From Escherichia coli 042 (lineage in GTDB: Bacteria; Pseudomonadota; Gammaproteobacteria; Enterobacterales; Enterobacteriaceae): DNA of 64,000 nt. Below, piece after piece: positions 10,580 to 32,788 of this stretch. The stretch lies in the NCBI RefSeq assembly GCF_000027125.1, contig NC_017626.1, one strand, 5' to 3'. Each line of letters begins with the position of its first letter. Position 1 is the first letter of the stretch. Both the position numbers and the translations under genes were made by a program. Below the pieces are notes generated by a model. That model was given only the letters and a program-made list of their open reading frames with translations. It was not told where the DNA came from and searched no databases.

Positions 10580-11824
10580 ATGACACAGGCAAACCTGAGC
10601 GAAACCCTGTTCAAACCCCGCTTTAAACATCCTGAAACCTCGACGCTAGTCCGCCGCTTTAATCACGGCGCACAACCGCCTGTGCAGTCGGCCCTTGATG
10701 GTAAAACCATCCCTCACTGGTATCGCATGATTAACCGTCTGATGTGGATCTGGCGCGGCATTGACCCACGTGAAATCCTCGACGTCCAGGCACGTATTGT
10801 GATGAGCGATGCCGAACGTACCGACGATGATTTATACGATACGGTGATTGGCTACCGTGGTGGCAACTGGATTTATGAGTGGGCCACCCAGGCGATGGTG
10901 TGGCAACAAAAAGCCTGTGCAGAAGAAGATCCGCAACTCAGTGGTCGTCACTGGCTGCATGCGGCTACGTTGTACAACATTGCCGCCTATCCTCATCTGA
11001 AAGGAGATGACCTGGCCGAGCAAGCGCAGGCTTTGTCAAACCGCGCCTATGAAGAGGCCGCTCAGCGTCTGCCGGGCACCATGCGGCAGATGGAGTTTAC
11101 CGTACCCGGCGGTGCGCCCATCACCGGCTTTTTGCATATGCCGAAAGGCGATGGCCCGTTCCCGACAGTATTAATGTGTGGTGGTCTGGATGCGATGCAG
11201 ACGGACTATTACAGCCTGTATGAACGTTATTTTGCGCCGCGCGGCATTGCGATGCTGACTATTGATATGCCGTCGGTGGGCTTTTCTTCAAAATGGAAGC
11301 TCACCCAGGACTCCAGCCTGTTGCATCAGCACGTCTTAAAGGCGCTGCCTAACGTACCGTGGGTAGATCACACTCGCGTCGCGGCCTTTGGTTTCCGTTT
11401 CGGCGCTAACGTTGCCGTGCGTCTGGCATACCTTGAATCGCCGCGTCTGAAAGCGGTTGCCTGTCTTGGTCCGGTAGTTCATACCCTGTTGAGTGATTTT
11501 AAGTGCCAGCAACAGGTGCCGGAAATGTATCTTGACGTTCTGGCGAGCCGTTTGGGGATGCATGATGCTTCCGACGAAGCGTTGCGCGTGGAGCTGAATC
11601 GCTATTCATTAAAAGTGCAAGGATTGCTGGGACGTCGCTGCCCAACGCCAATGTTATCAGGCTACTGGAAGAACGATCCGTTCAGCCCGGAAGAGGACTC
11701 ACGCTTAATCACCTCATCATCTGCTGACGGTAAATTGTTAGAGATCCCATTTAACCCGGTGTATCGGAATTTTGACAAAGGTCTTCAGGAAATCACCGAC
11801 TGGATCGAAAAACGATTGTGTTAA
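10580..11824 (+). CDS. frsA: Esterase FrsA (fermentation/respiration switch protein)
   Basis: 414 aa alpha/beta hydrolase; conserved position between gpt and crl. Confidence 0.9.
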
Positions 11825-16147: not shown

Positions 16148-16223
16148 GCCGATATAGCTCAGTTGGTAGAGCAGCGCATTCGTAATGCGAAGGTCGTAGG
16201 TTCGACTCCTATTATCGGCACCA
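16148..16223 (+). tRNA. thrW: tRNA-Thr (anticodon CGU)
   Basis: 76-nt cloverleaf GCCGATATAGCTCAGTTGGTAGAGCAGCGCATTCGTAATGCG...GGTTCGACTCCTATTATCGGCACCA; anticodon loop TTCGTAA; encoded CCA. Confidence 0.9.
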
Positions 16224-16224
16224 T

Positions 16225-16503
16225 TTAAATCAATAAGTTACACATAATTAGTACCTTCCTTTTTTTTGACTGGGACAAATTTGGGACCGATGGGTTCAGG
16301 ACTGAGTCTATTTGCCGTGCGTGTTCGGTAAGGTGATTAGGCGCGAGGTGAGCATATCGACGAACCATTTCGATAGACTCCCAGCCTCCCATTTCTGAAA
16401 ATGCAAGAAGAGAAACACTGGACTGAACCAGCCTGCTTGCCTTTGCTATCAAAGTACCTTGAAGGCCAGATGATTTCTGGCGATATTTACAGCGCTTCCG
16501 CAA
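16225..16503 (-). pseudogene. C-terminal remnant of a tyrosine recombinase (phage-type integrase), 3' end abutting thrW
   Basis: Translation [26 protein letters not shown] carries the integrase C-terminal box with the catalytic Tyr; at most about 90 codons are available before the next gene, so the catalytic core is missing. Confidence 0.55.
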
Positions 16504-16585
16504 TGAGTTTTTCTCTGTGCCGCCAGAGGCGTTCCCCGCTTTTTCAGCACCGCAATAATGTCGGCGGAATGCCAGTCCTGTTGCA

Positions 16586-17056
16586 TCATGCGGCCACCTC
16601 GCTGATAAATTTTACGCCGTCGGCGGTACGCAGCCAGCGTGGGGCTTTGAGTCCTTCCGTGAAATACCAGACCAGCTCACACAGCAGCCCGGTCAGGGTT
16701 TGCTCCATTTTTGGTTCCGCCGGACGTTCCAGCAGAAGCTGGAGTAGTGCGAGGCAGTATTCGCACAAGGAATCAGGTTCGGAAATAAAGTGCTCTGGTG
16801 TGGCGGGAAGGGTATCCACGGTCAGGCTTTCGGTAAGATGCGGTGGGATGGGGTCGTGTAGTGTGGGTTGCAGTAGCGCAAGAGCCGCGTGAAGCCGCCC
16901 GCAGAGCGCCAGTCGTAGCGCTGGATCGTCGGTTTCAATCAGGGTTTCGGCAAAGCGGGCGCAGTAGTCAGCAAGGACAGTGAAATCCGTGGTGGCATTG
17001 AAGGGGACGGTCAATAGATCGAGTAAATCGCTGTCAGTGGTGAGGATTGTAGCCAT
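16586..17056 (-). CDS. Hypothetical acidic, Leu/Ala/Pro-rich protein (156 aa) of unknown function
   Basis: Clean GC-rich ORF with plausible composition; the overlapping plus-strand ORF is Ser/Arg/Gly-rich and looks like a shadow frame. No motif recognised. Confidence 0.45.
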
Positions 17057-17402
17057 AGGGCAACCTCCGATAAGTGGGTGTTCAAGCCACCACCGGAGAG
17101 GCTAATCTCGCGGGTGGTGGAACCGGGCAGGGTTAGCCTTACCAGCCTTATCGGACACTGGCGCGTCTTGCGACGCCCCCGCCCGGCCCACCATTGAGAT
17201 GTAACCGTGCGAACAACACAAAAAAAGACGCTGGCGCGTCATGTGTCGCCGATAAGATTTCTTCAGGAGGCTAATCCCGACGCCTGATTTTGCAGGCGCG
17301 GGAGAAAGATACTGCGATTGGTCATGAGTGGCAAGGGCTACATCATGTTTACCGACATCTCACGCAAAAATACCCTGATTATTAATAGCGAAAATCAGTT
17401 TC

Positions 17403-20400
17403 TTATTTTGGCGGTAGCTTTTTGCGGTTCTTTGCCAACTGGAATCCTTCAGGTAACGGTTTGAATTTATCGCCGCCTTTAGGCCAGCGTTTTGCCCTGC
17501 TCTGAAATGCCCTTAACGAGTCGATATCCAGCGTTGCAGCGACCACAAAGTCATTATCACCGCCCTTCACACGAGCAATATCACGCATAAAGGGTTCTTT
17601 TGCCGGGGAACGTACGCGACTATCGCCGTATTTTCGGTTATTCACTAAAATAGTATAGGCATGAATATCCAGCGCTGCTGATTCAATCAACGATGCAAAC
17701 GTATCTAGATCTTTATTCCAGCTCAATACCATTAATGCATCGAGTGCGCCCTGAAAACGGATCCTCGCTTTACTATTCTGGAGTTCAGAGCAAATCATAA
17801 CGCCAAAATTGACGCCGTGATGAATATATACCGGCTTACGTTGTTTAACATTAAGTGTCGAATCCCAAGACTTACCATAAGTTGAAAATAATGCCTCATC
17901 TTCACCTACGGCGGGTTCCAGCTTGGGTTGCCATATTTTGACACTCGCTGGATAGCCGAGTCTGTTATCTGAAAGGACAAGTACGGCCTCACTCTTCAGT
18001 TGATTATCGTCTAAGTGGCGGTATTCTGTTCCCGCAATTAGACTGATACCCGCCGAACTCAAACGATCAGCAATACTGTTAACCCAGCGTAACGGGATTG
18101 AAAGCTCAGGGAATAAAACATAATCAGGTTTAGGAGATAGTTTCAATGTTGCATTAACCAGTTCAGAAATCCGCTGGTACCTTGAACGGGACAAGTTAGA
18201 TTTATTGCAGGCCATTTTAGCCCAGTCGTCCTCCTCTGTTTTAATGCTGGTTAGCGCAACGACAACTTTATGTTTCCTGTCTGTGCCAATATGAATGAAT
18301 TTCTTAGGCCGAGCTTTTTTTGTCGCTTCATCTGAGTCCTGCTCCGATGCTAGCAACGTCGGTTTGATCCATACTCCGCGTAATGCTTGAGTATATTTTG
18401 CCCAAATGGTGGACGGTCTCTCATCTGGTTTTTTGTCGGATGTGGAGGGTAATCCAACACATTCGGGGGCCAGTTCTGATATTTCAGCGGGTGTTAAAGG
18501 ACGTGTAGGGAAAATGTAAGGTAGGTAACTTTCGTTCTTACGATTTCCTTTAGCCACTTTTTCCAGTCGGGTATTCTTGGTTGATTTCAAAAATAGCTTA
18601 ATAACGTCAATATCAATAAGCGATGAGTCGCTCATTAATTTCAGTATTTTAACTTCTTTTTTACTATCACGCTGATTAACAAGTTTTTCTGCCGACTGAC
18701 TCTTTACGATCTGTTTATAAGGTTCCTTTGCTAAATCAGCTCGAGCTACCAATGGCGCTTTTAAATAAAAATCTGCTGAATCAAAGCGAAGATCCAGTAA
18801 ATCCTTTAGATTCGTCAGACTTTGTGAAATATGATTAAAAAATGTATCCGCAAGGCACTCTTCTTTCTTTGAACGTTTATCAAGAAATAATCTGTCAGGA
18901 CTGTAATATCGTGTCGCTGCATCAACAAATAGCCAGCTTAATGTGCCTTTTATACAGCGCCAAAGATCATTTACTGCTCGAGTTTTGCAACCATTTATAT
19001 TCACTTCCTTACCTGAAGTAATCACCGATGCCAACAGGTTGATGGATTCGTAAGCTTTAAGTACAATTTTTTCCGCGTGCTGCCATTCATTCATACTGAT
19101 AGCAAAGCCAAGCAGCCTTGGCAGATAACTAAAATGTGCAAATAGATTATCAGCCCTAAGAATATGGTTGTAGGCAAACTGATAAAACTCTTCCCGCTGT
19201 TCTTTCCATTCACTTGGAGGCAGATCTCGTGCCAGTGTTTCAACGTAGCGTAATTGCAGTGACCAGCCCAAACGACGAATGGTTAATCCATCCGCACGGC
19301 GCAGAGTATCGGCATTTTCACCTACACTACCGGCAGCGGAAAGGACTTTAGCTGCGGTGGAGTGTTCCAGTTGATCCGGTGAAGGCATCAAGCGGTGTTC
19401 ACTAGAAAGCTCGTAGATCTCCTTTTCGATACTGTCGAGCAGGTCTATTCCAGCCCTCCCTTGAAGCACGAAAAGTTTTTGCTTATCGGATTGTAACTGG
19501 ATGGTGGTCTTACCCTGGAAATGCTCGCCCTGCTGTATTTGCCATATTTGTTTTTGCTCGTTTTTCAAATAAACGCAATCATTGCCAAGCCTATCTTGCA
19601 GCAATAACATAAATTCGTGATTATTAGTAATTGTCCCTGTATCGCGTATTACAAGGAACATATCATCGACATAACGACCGTAGTGAATTGGTGATAGTTT
19701 TTCAATGACTAATTTATCCCAATGGTGTAGCAATATATTTGAAATGATCCGACTGGCTGTTAATCCAATGACCAGACCACCATTAATAACAGGTGTTTTG
19801 TACGCTATTTTCTTTCCAAATGCCGCTGCGCCGTCAGACCAGTGCTTTAAGAATACTGCTAACTGTGCAGTAAACGCTTTTTCATCCTCAGTCAGTTTTA
19901 TGTTTAGTGTGTTATAGAGATCATCAGAGGTTATAGCCAGTGGATCAATAAAATGATAGTAACTTTTTAAATCCAGTGAGGCGGCGATAATGTCACGATC
20001 TTTTTCCAACTCGTCACGTATAGCTTTTAAGCCATCACCACGCCATTTTTGGTAGGGCTGGAAGTAGGGGCTAAAAGAACCCACGGCACTGATATGGAAT
20101 GGATTATCCTGCTCATTGCTAAATAATTCATCATTACGAATACGCTTTAGCCGCGCGCCATAGCAACAGTTATCTAAGCTGGCATCAAATTTATGCCCGA
20201 CCATGTTAATCCATAGTGCAGAGATAATGTGACTATCAACCGGGAAGTCACCAATAATACGAAACTCTGGTATCAGATCAAAATTATTAAATAAATGGTC
20301 GGCTGCTCGTTTAGGATTAGAAAAGTGGACGTGTCCATTTTGGGATTCATGTTTTTTCTTTGTGGTTAATTTTTTCGGTAACAAACGAAATTTGCCAATC

Positions 20401-20612
20401 AACTTCTTATTGCTACTGAATCCATCTTCGCTCTGCAAAAGATCTAAGAGTTTTTGCAGGTTTTCAAGTAATTCCTGCTCATACTCGGCAAATTTGATAG
20501 CAACAGGAAATGTATTCTCAAAGAAGCTATCGGCTTTTGCTTTCCGGTAAGCGACCAGAAGGTCTTCAATCGTCAGATCATCCCAGCCAGTGAAAATTGC
20601 CTGATATGTCAT
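17403..20612 (-). CDS. Reverse transcriptase fused to a C-terminal nitrilase (carbon-nitrogen hydrolase) domain; candidate anti-phage RT (DRT type 1 / UG1-like)
   Basis: 1069 aa. RT motifs: LDLKSYYHFID (motif A-like, aa 213-223), GGLVIGLTASRIISNIL (motif B-like), HYGRYVDDMFLVI (motif C YVDD, aa 314-317, nt 19662-19673). C-terminal nitrilase triad candidates: FPE (E836), VKIWQPK (K892), GVMICSE (C941). AT-rich relative to flanks. Confidence 0.85.
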   Translation of the reverse strand: MTYQAIFTGWDDLTIEDLLVAYRKAKADSFFENTFPVAIKFAEYEQELLENLQKLLDLLQSEDGFSSNKKLIGKFRLLPKKLTTKKKHESQNGHVHFSNPKRAADHLFNNFDLIPEFRIIGDFPVDSHIISALWINMVGHKFDASLDNCCYGARLKRIRNDELFSNEQDNPFHISAVGSFSPYFQPYQKWRGDGLKAIRDELEKDRDIIAASLDLKSYYHFIDPLAITSDDLYNTLNIKLTEDEKAFTAQLAVFLKHWSDGAAAFGKKIAYKTPVINGGLVIGLTASRIISNILLHHWDKLVIEKLSPIHYGRYVDDMFLVIRDTGTITNNHEFMLLLQDRLGNDCVYLKNEQKQIWQIQQGEHFQGKTTIQLQSDKQKLFVLQGRAGIDLLDSIEKEIYELSSEHRLMPSPDQLEHSTAAKVLSAAGSVGENADTLRRADGLTIRRLGWSLQLRYVETLARDLPPSEWKEQREEFYQFAYNHILRADNLFAHFSYLPRLLGFAISMNEWQHAEKIVLKAYESINLLASVITSGKEVNINGCKTRAVNDLWRCIKGTLSWLFVDAATRYYSPDRLFLDKRSKKEECLADTFFNHISQSLTNLKDLLDLRFDSADFYLKAPLVARADLAKEPYKQIVKSQSAEKLVNQRDSKKEVKILKLMSDSSLIDIDVIKLFLKSTKNTRLEKVAKGNRKNESYLPYIFPTRPLTPAEISELAPECVGLPSTSDKKPDERPSTIWAKYTQALRGVWIKPTLLASEQDSDEATKKARPKKFIHIGTDRKHKVVVALTSIKTEEDDWAKMACNKSNLSRSRYQRISELVNATLKLSPKPDYVLFPELSIPLRWVNSIADRLSSAGISLIAGTEYRHLDDNQLKSEAVLVLSDNRLGYPASVKIWQPKLEPAVGEDEALFSTYGKSWDSTLNVKQRKPVYIHHGVNFGVMICSELQNSKARIRFQGALDALMVLSWNKDLDTFASLIESAALDIHAYTILVNNRKYGDSRVRSPAKEPFMRDIARVKGGDNDFVVAATLDIDSLRAFQSRAKRWPKGGDKFKPLPEGFQLAKNRKKLPPK

Positions 20613-20906: not shown

Positions 20907-21710
20907 ATGTCTATTCAGAGGCGACAGTTGCCAAACTATCTAAACTGGCTGATGCAGCACACGCTACCCGGCCAGGTGCTGCTCCAGTCATGGCTTACCC
21001 GCAACGGCATAGATCGTAAGCTCTCTTATCTCTATGTGAAGAATGGCTGGCTCAGGCGGATCGCTCACGGCGTATACTGCCGGACGGGCCGTGAGCCGGA
21101 TTGGGTAGACGCGGTTTACTGCCTTCAAACACAGTGGGAAAAGCCTGTTCGGGTGGCGGGGCTAACCAGCCTTGCGCTTCAGGGCCATGCGCACTATACC
21201 GAACCGGGTAAGCCGCAGGTCTGGCTCGCGCTTCCGGCTTACGTTAAGCTGCCGGGATGGTTTGCTGCCTTCGAACAATCTGCAACATTTATCACGCTGT
21301 ATACATCGGGGCTTACCGTAGATGTAACGTCATTGACTACGGAACTGAAAATTGGCGACCGCCAGTTAGCAGGCAGTGCCCCGGAACTGGCCGCGTATGA
21401 GATCGCCTGCGGCGTTCCTTCGTTGATATCGTTCGAACATGCCGATGCTCTGTTTCAGGGGATGAATCTTCTCAGCCCGCGTAAATTGCAGGCGTTACTC
21501 TGCGCCAGTCATTCGGTTAAAACCAACCGGGTGATGCTTTACCTTGCCCGGCGTAATGGACACCCTTATTTTCAGTATCTTGATCAAAGCGGTATAGAAA
21601 CAGGTACGGGAAAGCGGCAAATCATACCTGGTGGCTGGCTGGAGCCGGATTATCAAATTACTGTTCCACGCGAATTTAAACCGGAAGGAGTCGAAGATGG
21701 ATCTGCGTGA
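20907..21710 (+). CDS. AbiEi-family transcriptional regulator / type IV antitoxin
   Basis: 267 aa; N-terminal AbiEi-type winged-helix signature (YVKNGWLRRIAHGVYCRTG); overlaps and precedes a nucleotidyltransferase gene. Confidence 0.7.
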   Translation: MSIQRRQLPNYLNWLMQHTLPGQVLLQSWLTRNGIDRKLSYLYVKNGWLRRIAHGVYCRTGREPDWVDAVYCLQTQWEKPVRVAGLTSLALQGHAHYTEPGKPQVWLALPAYVKLPGWFAAFEQSATFITLYTSGLTVDVTSLTTELKIGDRQLAGSAPELAAYEIACGVPSLISFEHADALFQGMNLLSPRKLQALLCASHSVKTNRVMLYLARRNGHPYFQYLDQSGIETGTGKRQIIPGGWLEPDYQITVPREFKPEGVEDGSA

Positions 21711-22617
21711 TAGCTATACCCGGCAGGTCAAACTGTTGATGGACGCTCTGCCGCATGTGGCGAAGGAGTCCGGTTTCGCATTAAAAGGCGGCACCGCAAT
21801 CAATTTGTTTGTGCAGGATTTTCCCCGTCTGTCGGTGGATATCGATCTGGCGTATAAGACTTTTGCGGATCGCGATACCGATTTGACGGCGATCAACGAC
21901 GCTTTGAAGAGAATTACTGCATCGCTGAACAGTAAACCGGGGATTACCGCGATTCGGCAGGAAAATAAAACGGATGAAAAGCGCATCATTGTGAATACGG
22001 CTGATGCCCAGATTAAGATCGAGGTTAGTCCGGTCTGGCGTGGGCTATTGTTGCCTCCGGCAGAAATGTCGGTGTGCGAACGTGTGGAAATGGAGTATGG
22101 CTTCACCACTATGAGTGTCGTTTCGCTGGCGGATCTTTATGGCGGTAAAATCTGCGCAGCGCTTGATCGTCAGCACCCGCGCGATCTGTTTGATGTGCTG
22201 AATATGCTGGAGAAACCGGGACTGATGCGGGAGATCTTTGACGGTTTTCTTTGTTATCTGGCAGGCCATCCCCGCCCCATTGCCGAGTTGCTGGCTCCAA
22301 ACTGGGATACAGAGCGGATCACGACGCTGTATGCTCAGGAATTTTCGGGGATGACTCAGCAGGAAACGTCGCTGGAATCGCTGCTGTCAGTAACGACTTT
22401 GCTGCCGCAGGCGTTGAAGTCACATCTTACGGATCTGGATCGCGAGTTCTTGCTCAGTTTTAAGCAAAACAGCCCTGACTGGTCGCGGTATCGCTATCCT
22501 GAAATTCAGCATCTTCCGGCTATTCGCTGGAAGCAACGTAATCTGGCGGTGCTGAAAGATAAAAATCCGGCGAAGTATGTGGCGGCGGTGAATAAGCTAG
22601 AGAGGGTGCTGGCGTAA
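21697..22617 (+). CDS. AbiEii/AbiGii-family nucleotidyltransferase toxin (DUF1814)
   Basis: Start set at ATG 21697 (GGAAGGAG Shine-Dalgarno, 14-nt overlap with the upstream gene); nucleotidyltransferase motif ALKGGTAINLF...RLSVDIDLA. Confidence 0.75.
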   Translation: MDLRDSYTRQVKLLMDALPHVAKESGFALKGGTAINLFVQDFPRLSVDIDLAYKTFADRDTDLTAINDALKRITASLNSKPGITAIRQENKTDEKRIIVNTADAQIKIEVSPVWRGLLLPPAEMSVCERVEMEYGFTTMSVVSLADLYGGKICAALDRQHPRDLFDVLNMLEKPGLMREIFDGFLCYLAGHPRPIAELLAPNWDTERITTLYAQEFSGMTQQETSLESLLSVTTLLPQALKSHLTDLDREFLLSFKQNSPDWSRYRYPEIQHLPAIRWKQRNLAVLKDKNPAKYVAAVNKLERVLA

Positions 22618-32540: not shown

Positions 32541-32788
32541 TGCATTGAATAATAAAAATGGCGCAAATGCAGCGCCATTTTTATAGGTTAAAAACATTGC
32601 TTTTTACTTTCTGAAGCAGATAGCCAGTGAGTACATCGCGCTACTTCAGGATGCTGTAGATCCGGAGAACACTATAGAGGAAGATGCATTGTTGCTGGCA
32701 GATGGAAGAAGTTTCGGGTTTTGTTATCCCTGAAAAACGAAGCCCCGCGGTTATAGCTGGCGGGGCAGTGCAATTAATTATTGCATAT

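Follow-up and report, generated by a model that had tools for sequence, protein, structure and literature searches.

A 156-residue acidic protein encoded behind a C4/CI-type RNA switch, a probable backbone component of small tRNA-inserted islets in Enterobacterales

The c4 RNAs of phages P1 and P7 and the cI RNA of P4 are processed from an operon transcript, act on duplicated targets, and block downstream translation or transcription. In P1, the first gene after c4, icd, encodes a cell-division inhibitor. To our knowledge, every characterised switch of the C4, CI, or IsrK kind gates an anti-repressor or derepression function, and P1, P4, and Gifsy-1 are the only systems for which we know of literature evidence that the RNA is processed and represses genes downstream of it in vivo. 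Here, we compare with these systems a 64,000-nucleotide stretch of Escherichia coli 042 (contig NC_017626.1; the whole stretch is called the window below), in which an open reading frame (ORF) of 156 codons, at 16586..17056 (-), lies beside a gene for a reverse transcriptase (RT) of the RT-nitrilase type. A preliminary description of the ORF had considered, among other things, that it might serve as a partner of that RT.

The Gifsy-1 locus isrK–orf45/STnc1160–anrP begins with an IsrK leader that has a leaky terminator, followed by an ORF that is conserved in nucleotides and variable in amino acids (PMC4825925). The orf45 region yields a processed RNA of ~80 nt, and the effector gene is silent until the RNA structure is remodelled (PMC4825925). 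The effector, AnrP, is anti-repressor-like by annotation, and cells that express it stop growing (Hershko-Shalev et al. 2016, PMC4825925). The comparison presented below makes it likely, in our judgment, that the 156-codon ORF belongs to the backbone of a small islet inserted at a tRNA gene, lies behind a C4/CI-type RNA switch, and is no part of the RT system.

The spacer between the RT gene and the ORF, already called structured in the preliminary description, is so by calculation (z = -5.5 versus shuffles), and it consists of two RNA genes that had gone unnamed. One is an IsrK/SeqA-like leader at 17221..17299 (-; RF01394, 68.8 bits, above the Rfam gathering score), ended by a predicted intrinsic terminator (17240-17227 plus a U-run, -). 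Directly upstream of it is a promoter-like site, TTGCCA-17-TATCTT (17306..17334, -), whose -10 box is kept in related loci as a GTATCTT block in the alignment. The other is a C4/CI-type antisense RNA at 17110..17198 (-; RF01695, 71.1 bits versus a gathering score of 45). Two segments are unpaired in the C4 RNA's own fold: b′ (CCGAUAAG, 17154-17147, -), which lies in a hairpin loop, and a′ (AGGCUAA, 17139-17133, -), which lies in an unpaired stretch. The exact complements of both segments occur twice. The upstream targets, a1 (UUAGCCU, 17274-17268, -) and b1 (CUUAUCGG, 17256-17249, -), are in the IsrK-like leader. The downstream targets are in the 53-nt linker between C4 and the ORF, with a2 (UUAGCCU, 17099..17105, -) just 3′ of the C4 RNA and b2 (CUUAUCGG, 17074-17067, -) overlapping the Shine–Dalgarno sequence GGAGG (17068-17064), which sits 7 nt before the ATG of the ORF. 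Three sequence features of a C4 module are present, namely a same-strand upstream RNA of the RF01695 family, a downstream target on the ribosome-binding site, and an upstream duplicate of the target. The c4-a1b1 model RF03163 scores 43.8 bits in the window, below its gathering score of 46.7, and exceeds that score in three related loci (L003, L013, and L057); RNA elements above the Rfam gathering thresholds are also found in P4 and in four homologue loci.

Relatives of the ORF were retrieved by a profile scan, with the closer alignment A2, of one-genome-per-species contigs, which gave 65 loci from other genomes, and covariation was tested on a 54-sequence alignment, A3. Between C4 and a2/b2, 98.3% of 806 cells pair, 13 of the 15 pairs show compensatory changes, and 161 cells are changed on both sides; none of 500 shuffles reaches the observed value, and sliding the register by 1–3 columns leaves 22–44% pairing. 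Taken alone over the 54 loci, b2 covaries at all eight of its pairs (97.4% paired) and a2 at five of its seven (99.2% paired). The upstream targets a1/b1 are likewise 98.3% paired with C4, with 13 of 15 pairs covarying (170 cells). The pairings are, that is, kept by compensatory changes across dozens of genera. Eighteen b′ and eight a′ variants occur in 30 combinations among the 54 loci, CCUGUAAC/GUUACAGG being an example of a heterologous specificity, and copies that reside in one genome differ in specificity (L017/L021, L030/L050, and L040/L044). Such three-way covariation, spread over 54 loci and 30 specificity types, provides an unusually clean natural data set for antisense–target recognition.

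The pair L017 and L021 deserves a separate remark. These two loci of Escherichia whittamii lie on the same contig, ~10 kb apart, as cassettes of leader, ORF, and helix-turn-helix (HTH) gene that are inverted around a tRNA-Asn cluster and P4-type integrases; their C4 specificities are UCGAUGAG/AGGUCAA and CCAGUAAG/AGACCAA, respectively.

The C4 RNA is overlain, at 17102-17275 (-), by a coding sequence (CDS) that RefSeq calls an ‘ash family protein’ (Pfam PF10554). An ATG-initiated ORF over C4 is present in 45 of the 54 aligned loci; measured against the main ATG, these ORFs divide 13/17/15 among the frames, their stops fall at scattered positions, and the only part that they share is the stretch encoded by the C4 5′ stem (MVGRAGASQDAPVS). 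Since the overlying ORF has no conserved frame, the ‘ash family’ similarity seems to derive from conservation of the RNA, a situation already remarked on for orf45 of Gifsy-1. Membership of the 156-residue protein itself in the Ash family (PF10554) was rejected, the ORF having no Pfam match; the Ash matches are confined to gene calls that are over-extended at the N-terminus and run across the C4 RNA.

The tightest partner of the ORF is the RNA leader. In 53 of the 65 loci, C4 lies directly upstream on the same strand, and IsrK is found in 60 (nhmmer); in the 51 loci where the conserved start was picked, the C4 3′ end is 51–56 nt from the ATG. No conserved protein neighbour was found upstream of the ORF in the 65 loci. 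Downstream, an HTH_35 gene recurs in 29 of them, a 294-aa gene of the Integrase_1 type in 23, and a P4-type integrase in 25, and beyond these is tRNA-Phe or tRNA-Asn. In the intact islets, the full-length HTH_35 gene, which is Ner-like, is the second cistron (68–83 aa, 23 pairs), with its start overlapping the ORF stop by 4 nt (ATGA-type) in 22 of the 23 pairs; because of this overlap, the two genes are predicted to be translationally coupled. An AlphaFold2 run on the two linked proteins, a weak test with a paired alignment of 17 rows, supported no complex (pTM 0.49, pLDDT 69.7). There is also an orphan class: in Leclercia L062, leader, C4, and ORF lie between a PTS-sorbose operon and unrelated metabolic genes, and these surroundings hold no integrase, tRNA, or HTH gene. 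As to the 294-aa gene (Phage_int_SAM_2/Integrase_1), an EFASI RNA motif (RF02957, 100–119 bits) was noticed ~55–100 nt upstream of it and downstream of the Ner-like gene in intact islets, at 11300-11429 (+) in L009 and 11389-11517 (+) in L003; the motif may be a cis-regulator of this recombinase.

The ORF is confirmed as a real gene, beyond a chance ORF, by its homologous clusters, its conserved length, the ratios of nonsynonymous to synonymous substitution (dN/dS) in its family, and a confident structural model. It runs from ATG to stop as a GC-rich frame of 471 nt, as first described, and RefSeq agrees, listing an identical hypothetical protein (WP_000201185.1). The homologues fall into 646 clusters at 90% identity, all annotated as hypothetical, and the named clusters come mainly from Enterobacterales (Escherichia, Salmonella, Klebsiella, Enterobacter, Citrobacter, Dickeya, Pectobacterium, and Brenneria). 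An exhaustive HMMER scan of 1.8 billion representatives yielded just 188 relatives (50% identity representatives), and so the family appears, from these sequences, to be small, taxonomically narrow, and largely restricted to Enterobacterales. Lengths are 144–158 aa in 46 of 48 loci, clustering at 153 aa, and pairwise dN/dS is 0.09–0.33. A 45-sequence alignment that reaches down to 28% identity shows the conserved stretches LALCGRL, LTVD, Y-C-AL, GLL-(E/D)L, and LKAPR.

The AlphaFold2 model of the product (pLDDT 90.3, pTM 0.83) shows four long helices packed as an up-down bundle and, at the C-terminus, a small beta-hairpin. The protein is acidic and rich in Leu, Ala, and Pro, in agreement with the preliminary description (31 Leu, 18 Thr, 17 Ala, and 12 Pro; 23 D+E versus 9 K+R; isoelectric point 4.38). 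It is soluble and not a membrane protein, with a maximal 19-residue Kyte–Doolittle mean of 1.14 and a longest uncharged run of 10 residues. Conservation falls mostly on leucines in the core of the bundle, and the protein has no candidate catalytic residue or motif. This combination of an acidic, helical protein, conserved core leucines, and lack of candidate catalytic residues suggests that the product acts by binding, most likely to another protein.

The earlier remark that no motif could be recognised in the protein has stood up to profile and structure-based searches, which gave no specific match. The product had no match in profile searches of Pfam, NCBIfam, PHROGs, and PADLOC, and 45 alignment members searched against Pfam and PHROGs gave stray single-member matches only. 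A PDB sequence profile search returned noise (E ≥ 0.04), Foldseek with the model against BFVD returned nothing at E ≤ 0.001, and the fold is a generic helical bundle with no specific structural match. A tblastn search of 50,697 phage records, among which Icd and Ant should be represented, matched no phage protein; the lone match, to a 1.5-kb ‘unverified’ contig of ~2x coverage, was dismissed as host DNA.

By analogy with P1/P7 c4 and P4 cI, the C4 RNA would be processed from the same transcript as the ORF and would pair with its targets, so that the ribosome-binding site would be occluded and/or transcription would terminate prematurely. The ORF and the coupled Ner-like gene would thereby be kept off, until the RNA control is overridden in the way that IsrK accumulation does in Gifsy-1 or helper infection in P4. 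The ORF product would be the effector of the switch, anti-repressor-like or an induction factor. By position, the ORF corresponds to Icd/Ant in P1, to the Eps operon in P4, and to AnrP in Gifsy-1. An anti-repressor-type effector is its most likely role, which we put forward as a weaker inference; it is favoured because the characterised C4/CI/IsrK switches gate anti-repressor or derepression functions, and because coupling to a Ner/Cro-like regulator fits.

A number of points weigh against this proposal. For processing of the C4 RNA and repression of the ORF, the argument is one of analogy, the term ‘anti-repressor-like effector’ reflects position only, and neither sequence nor fold searches linked the product to a protein of known function. 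A duplex-energy calculation did not separate the real C4 targets from shuffled ones; these energies are uninformative because the algorithm unfolds GC-rich RNA. In seven loci (L024, at 7900-8001, L063, L056, L057, L042, L053, and L058), C4 has been lost and an intact ORF of 144–154 aa is kept behind the IsrK-like leader. The end points of these deletions are in the repeated targets (a1/a2 or b1/b2), with the IsrK-like leader fused to the Shine–Dalgarno region, as if the direct repeats on either side of C4 had recombined. No matching C4 was found in the same genomes among the loci retrieved. Two islets, L020 (Entomohabitans) and L028 (Citrobacter werkmanii), have an unrelated leader with no IsrK or C4 match (~7800-7962) and retain the backbone of ORF, HTH_35, Integrase_1, and P4-type integrase; the N-terminus of their ORF differs (MPDFTLSF...). 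Given the seven C4-less loci and these two islets, C4 control is not obligatory, and the two islets, by carrying the backbone behind a different leader, show that the protein module is separable from the RNA switch. The distant homologues L083 and L084 (two contigs examined) have neither C4 nor IsrK at the Rfam thresholds. Lastly, both the integrase and the HTH gene that follows the ORF are defective in the window, and the module may be functionless there.

In the window, chromosomal genes of E. coli (crl, phoE, proB, proA, and tRNA-Thr) are followed by an islet of ~6.5 kb. The islet is inserted at the tRNA-Thr gene thrW (16148..16220, +; Rfam tRNA, 71.8 bits; RefSeq tRNA-Thr). A C-terminal remnant of a tyrosine integrase, 92 codons long (16225..16503, -; C-terminal 35 residues of PF00589; phrog_1; RefSeq pseudogene), abuts the tRNA gene and reads toward it. 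In other strains, thrW holds a lambdoid prophage with a full-length int, whose 3′ end matches the remnant at 98% identity; the remnant is not of the P4 type. The HTH_35 gene is present as a truncated and frameshifted N-terminal part of 46 codons (16449..16589, -; Ner/SfsB-like; PF13693 residues 1–20; NF007670), described by RefSeq as ‘frameshifted; missing C-terminus’ and cut after ~22 conserved residues; its ATG overlaps the stop of the ORF. Because the Ner-like gene is cut, and because the integrase remnant is from a lambdoid prophage and not P4-type, the islet in the window is composite and immobile. The promoter-like site, the leader, C4, both target pairs, the Shine–Dalgarno sequence, and the ORF are intact, and the module may be a remnant, fixed in place, in which ORF and RNA switch have been preserved. 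Elsewhere in the window, at 32546-32746 (+), there is an Rfam IS009 match (RF02111, 190.7 bits) that is unrelated to the 156-codon ORF; an IS009 element is also present in L002, near ykgJ.

Upstream of the leader is the RT_UG5-nitrilase gene (UG5-large, 1069 aa; 17403..20612, -; PADLOC PDLC03780, E = 0), and an AbiEi/AbiEii pair (20907..22617, +; Pfam and PADLOC) lies on the distal side of what proves to be a cargo slot. The AbiE pair is 75–91% identical across Escherichia, Serratia, Trabulsiella, and Brenneria and recurs at the far side in L002, L009, L030, L031, and L035; since it repeatedly marks that side, the variable slot is the interval between AbiEi and the leader promoter. The thrW islet L002, with a backbone 87% identical to that of the window, has the integrase remnant, the ORF, C4/‘ash’, IsrK, and the distal AbiE in common with it and carries hsdRMS (type I restriction–modification, R-M) in place of the RT gene. 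The slot holds hsdRMS and DarTG in Dickeya, a DUF4747 pair beside AbiE in Klebsiella, AAA/MComp1 (Lamassu-like) and PAAR/DUF2169 genes at the E. coli tRNA-Asn, and RHS elements in some loci. In L035 the slot is ~1.5 kb long; in L031 it has almost no content, the distance from AbiEi to the leader being 225 nt. The RT-nitrilase gene is, in this setting, interchangeable cargo and not part of the ORF module. In strain MEI003 (L001, 13304-16509), with a backbone 100% identical to the window, the RT-nitrilase annotation is split into two CDSs (533 and 528 aa), and the gene is probably inactivated; in the window and most other carriers, it is intact (1069 aa).

How, then, should the proximity of the ORF to the RT gene be understood? 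The ORF does lie between the integrase remnant and the RT gene, in the orientation of the latter, as the preliminary description stated, and this adjacency speaks for an accessory or regulatory subunit of RT-nitrilase defence. In Serratia marcescens L030, the same order of RT, leader, and ORF is found, within an entire AbiE–RT–leader–ORF block, and some UG5-large systems need a small downstream partner (PMC9226505). Nevertheless, L030 is the only one of the 65 loci with an RT homologue within 8 kb of the ORF, the other 64 being without one, and the same backbone at the same tRNA has hsdRMS instead. Of 5,426 complete E. coli genomes, 260 have the RT gene, and since almost all copies are ≥99% identical, it is effectively one clonal allele; the ORF family is present in 1,328 E. 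coli genomes, at 1,456 places, and ~80% of these genomes are without this RT. A predicted promoter, a terminator, and two RNA genes stand between the two genes, and the ORF has no PADLOC match. A partner of UG5-large RTs has been documented, and it is a transmembrane protein (PMC9226505, PMC9122126); its gene lies downstream of the RT in 31 of 299 cases (PMC9226505), and it was reported as necessary for the defence of the UG5-large RT in E. coli E101. The ORF product fails the hydropathy test, and its candidacy for that accessory was rejected on its hydropathy maximum, its short uncharged run, and its soluble bundle model. No small transmembrane ORF was found downstream of the RT-nitrilase gene in the window, where the RT stop is ~70 nt from the leader promoter, and this RT belongs to the majority UG5-large class without a transmembrane partner. 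The distribution largely refutes the partnership, since homologues of the ORF are widespread without an RT neighbour, and we consider it highly improbable; cloning or interpretation of the RT-nitrilase can do without the ORF. The different origin that had been suspected from composition is borne out (GC 0.569 and third-position GC 0.605 for the ORF versus 0.419 and 0.384 for the RT gene). The other early suggestion, a leftover cargo gene of an integrative element, was right in assigning the ORF to the element and wrong in calling it cargo: as the first cistron behind the IsrK/C4 switch, coupled to the Ner-like gene, it is a conserved backbone gene.

Two further explanations bear on what the ORF does rather than on its company. 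The main alternative to the effector role is a toxin–antitoxin-like one, in which the ORF product would be a toxic or growth-arresting component and C4 its antidote, and the toxic component would act when phage infection or loss of the element stops the supply of C4 (compare P1 c4/icd and the type I and III toxin–antitoxin systems). Leader, C4, and ORF are indeed the minimal conserved unit and persist as an orphan in L062, C4 targets the ribosome-binding site of the ORF by covariation-supported pairing, the islets are rich in defence genes, diversified RNA specificities are typical of addiction and immunity pairs, and the gene in the equivalent place in P1, icd, is established as a cell-division inhibitor. 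On the other hand, C4 has been lost from seven loci that keep the ORF at 144–154 aa, co-resident C4 copies have non-matching specificities, and there is no match to PADLOC or to a toxin–antitoxin family. A soluble acidic bundle of 156 aa is also unlike nuclease toxins or the hydrophobic toxins of type I systems, which are usually <60 aa and in which loss of the RNA is not tolerated; a type I toxin–antitoxin system was rejected on these grounds. Altogether, we regard a toxin-like role as unlikely. Slightly less probable still is that the ORF in the window is a functionless relic of a decayed islet, still whole just because little time has passed since the deletion. Next to the ORF, HTH_35 has a frameshift and is cut short, no more than 92 codons of an unrelated integrase are left, the allele is nearly clonal (257 records at ≥99% identity), and truncated copies of the ORF occur in other E. 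coli (hits H90–H94). However, a relic would have to account for the intact state of the ORF, the Shine–Dalgarno sequence, the target pairs, C4, IsrK, and the promoter-like site, for the 87%-identical thrW islet that keeps the same elements with other cargo, and for orphan copies in many genera that are full-length ORFs under purifying selection.

Returning to the proposal of an RNA-gated backbone gene, its wider setting may be the ‘integrase-only’ islands of E. coli, which are described as small, tRNA-associated islands of defence systems and integrases whose mobilisation is unexplained and in which no genes of phages, satellites, or conjugation systems can be recognised (Hochhauser et al. 2023, PMC10121019). 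The intact relatives of the window islet fit that description, and the IsrK/C4–ORF–Ner core is not mentioned in the examined passages of PMC10121019. It is tempting, if on the whole doubtful, to extend the proposal as follows. The IsrK-like leader, C4, the 153–156-aa protein, and the Ner-like HTH gene would be an unrecognised regulatory core of ‘integrase-only’ defence/RHS islets at tRNA-Phe, -Asn, and -Thr of Enterobacterales. These would represent a P4-descended lineage that kept the immunity switch and the integrase and lost the replication and capsid genes. The bundle protein would be an inducible effector, for example an anti-repressor or an Eps-like helper-exploitation factor, that couples phage infection to induction or mobilisation of the islet, and the many specificities would keep co-resident islets independent. 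Irrespective of this extension, the switch backbone is borne by small islets that shuttle R-M, DarTG, AbiE, RT, and RHS cargo among Enterobacterales, and the conserved RNA-gated operon offers a testable handle on the regulation and mobilisation of ‘integrase-only’ islands (Hochhauser et al. 2023).

The immunity region of the satellite phage P4 comprises PLE, seqA, the cI RNA, seqC, and a left operon with eps, orf151, orf106, and alpha. P4 (L008) has the same order of RNAs as the module in the window, with an IsrK-like RNA at 8692-8615 and a C4/CI RNA at 8507-8420, both Rfam matches. Immediately after the CI RNA is a 65-aa ORF (MATTLTPSHPEF..., 8365-8171, -), which ends 8 nt inside eps and appears in the record only as the tail of the legacy 137-aa ‘cI gene product’ CDS. 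The P4 seqC element, ‘UUCACAGG’, abuts the AGGAGG of this ORF just as b2 lies at the Shine–Dalgarno sequence in the window, and the P4 product starts MATTL, a MAT(T/I)L start being common to it and the 156-aa family. Comparison by hhalign and BLASTP of the ORF product with P4 ORF151, Eps, and the 65-aa post-CI ORF found nothing beyond the residues MATTL. Because the proteins are unrelated beyond the first codons, what is shared with P4 appears to be a module of leader and translation-initiation region, to which different effectors are joined: in P4, the 65-aa ORF is followed by eps, whereas here an unrelated protein is followed by the Ner-like HTH gene. Related islets also share a P4-type integrase (45–58% identical) at tRNA genes. 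A tblastn search of the 65 loci with 12 P4 proteins matched only int (25 of 65) and, weakly, Vis in one case. No P2/P4 cos was found within 3 mismatches in these loci, nor any blastn match to the cos region. Classification of the element as a P4-like satellite was rejected, there being no alpha, sid, delta, psu, or eps and no cos.

The immI region of P1 and P7 (c4–icd–ant) agrees with the window in its C4-family RNA, its a′ and b′ segments, and its duplicated targets a1/b1 and a2/b2. There, too, a2/b2 covers the ribosome-binding site of the first gene, and specificity changes covary. The differences are that immI belongs to a plasmid prophage and the present module to a chromosomal islet, and that the ORF product has no sequence similarity to any protein in the phage records searched. 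The Gifsy-1 locus is organised like the module in the window, and an orf45-type ORF over C4 is without a conserved frame here either. However, orf45 runs into the start of anrP, while here the overlying ORF stops 45 nt short of the ATG, and the Gifsy-1 effector is part of a full prophage; in the phage records searched by tblastn, no Gifsy-type protein matched the ORF. As for the neighbouring gene, it is of the UG5-large RT-nitrilase class, which rides on P4-related elements (Rousset et al. 2022; Mestre et al. 2022), and the ORF differs from the documented partner of that class, which is transmembrane, in being soluble and overwhelmingly found without an RT. Thus, the regulatory logic is the known one of P1 c4, P4 cI, and Gifsy-1 IsrK. 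What is new in comparison is an uncharacterised protein family as the gated output of such an RNA switch, a leader–ORF–Ner cassette as a fixed backbone beside a variable cargo slot, and an extensive diversification of the specificity of the switch.

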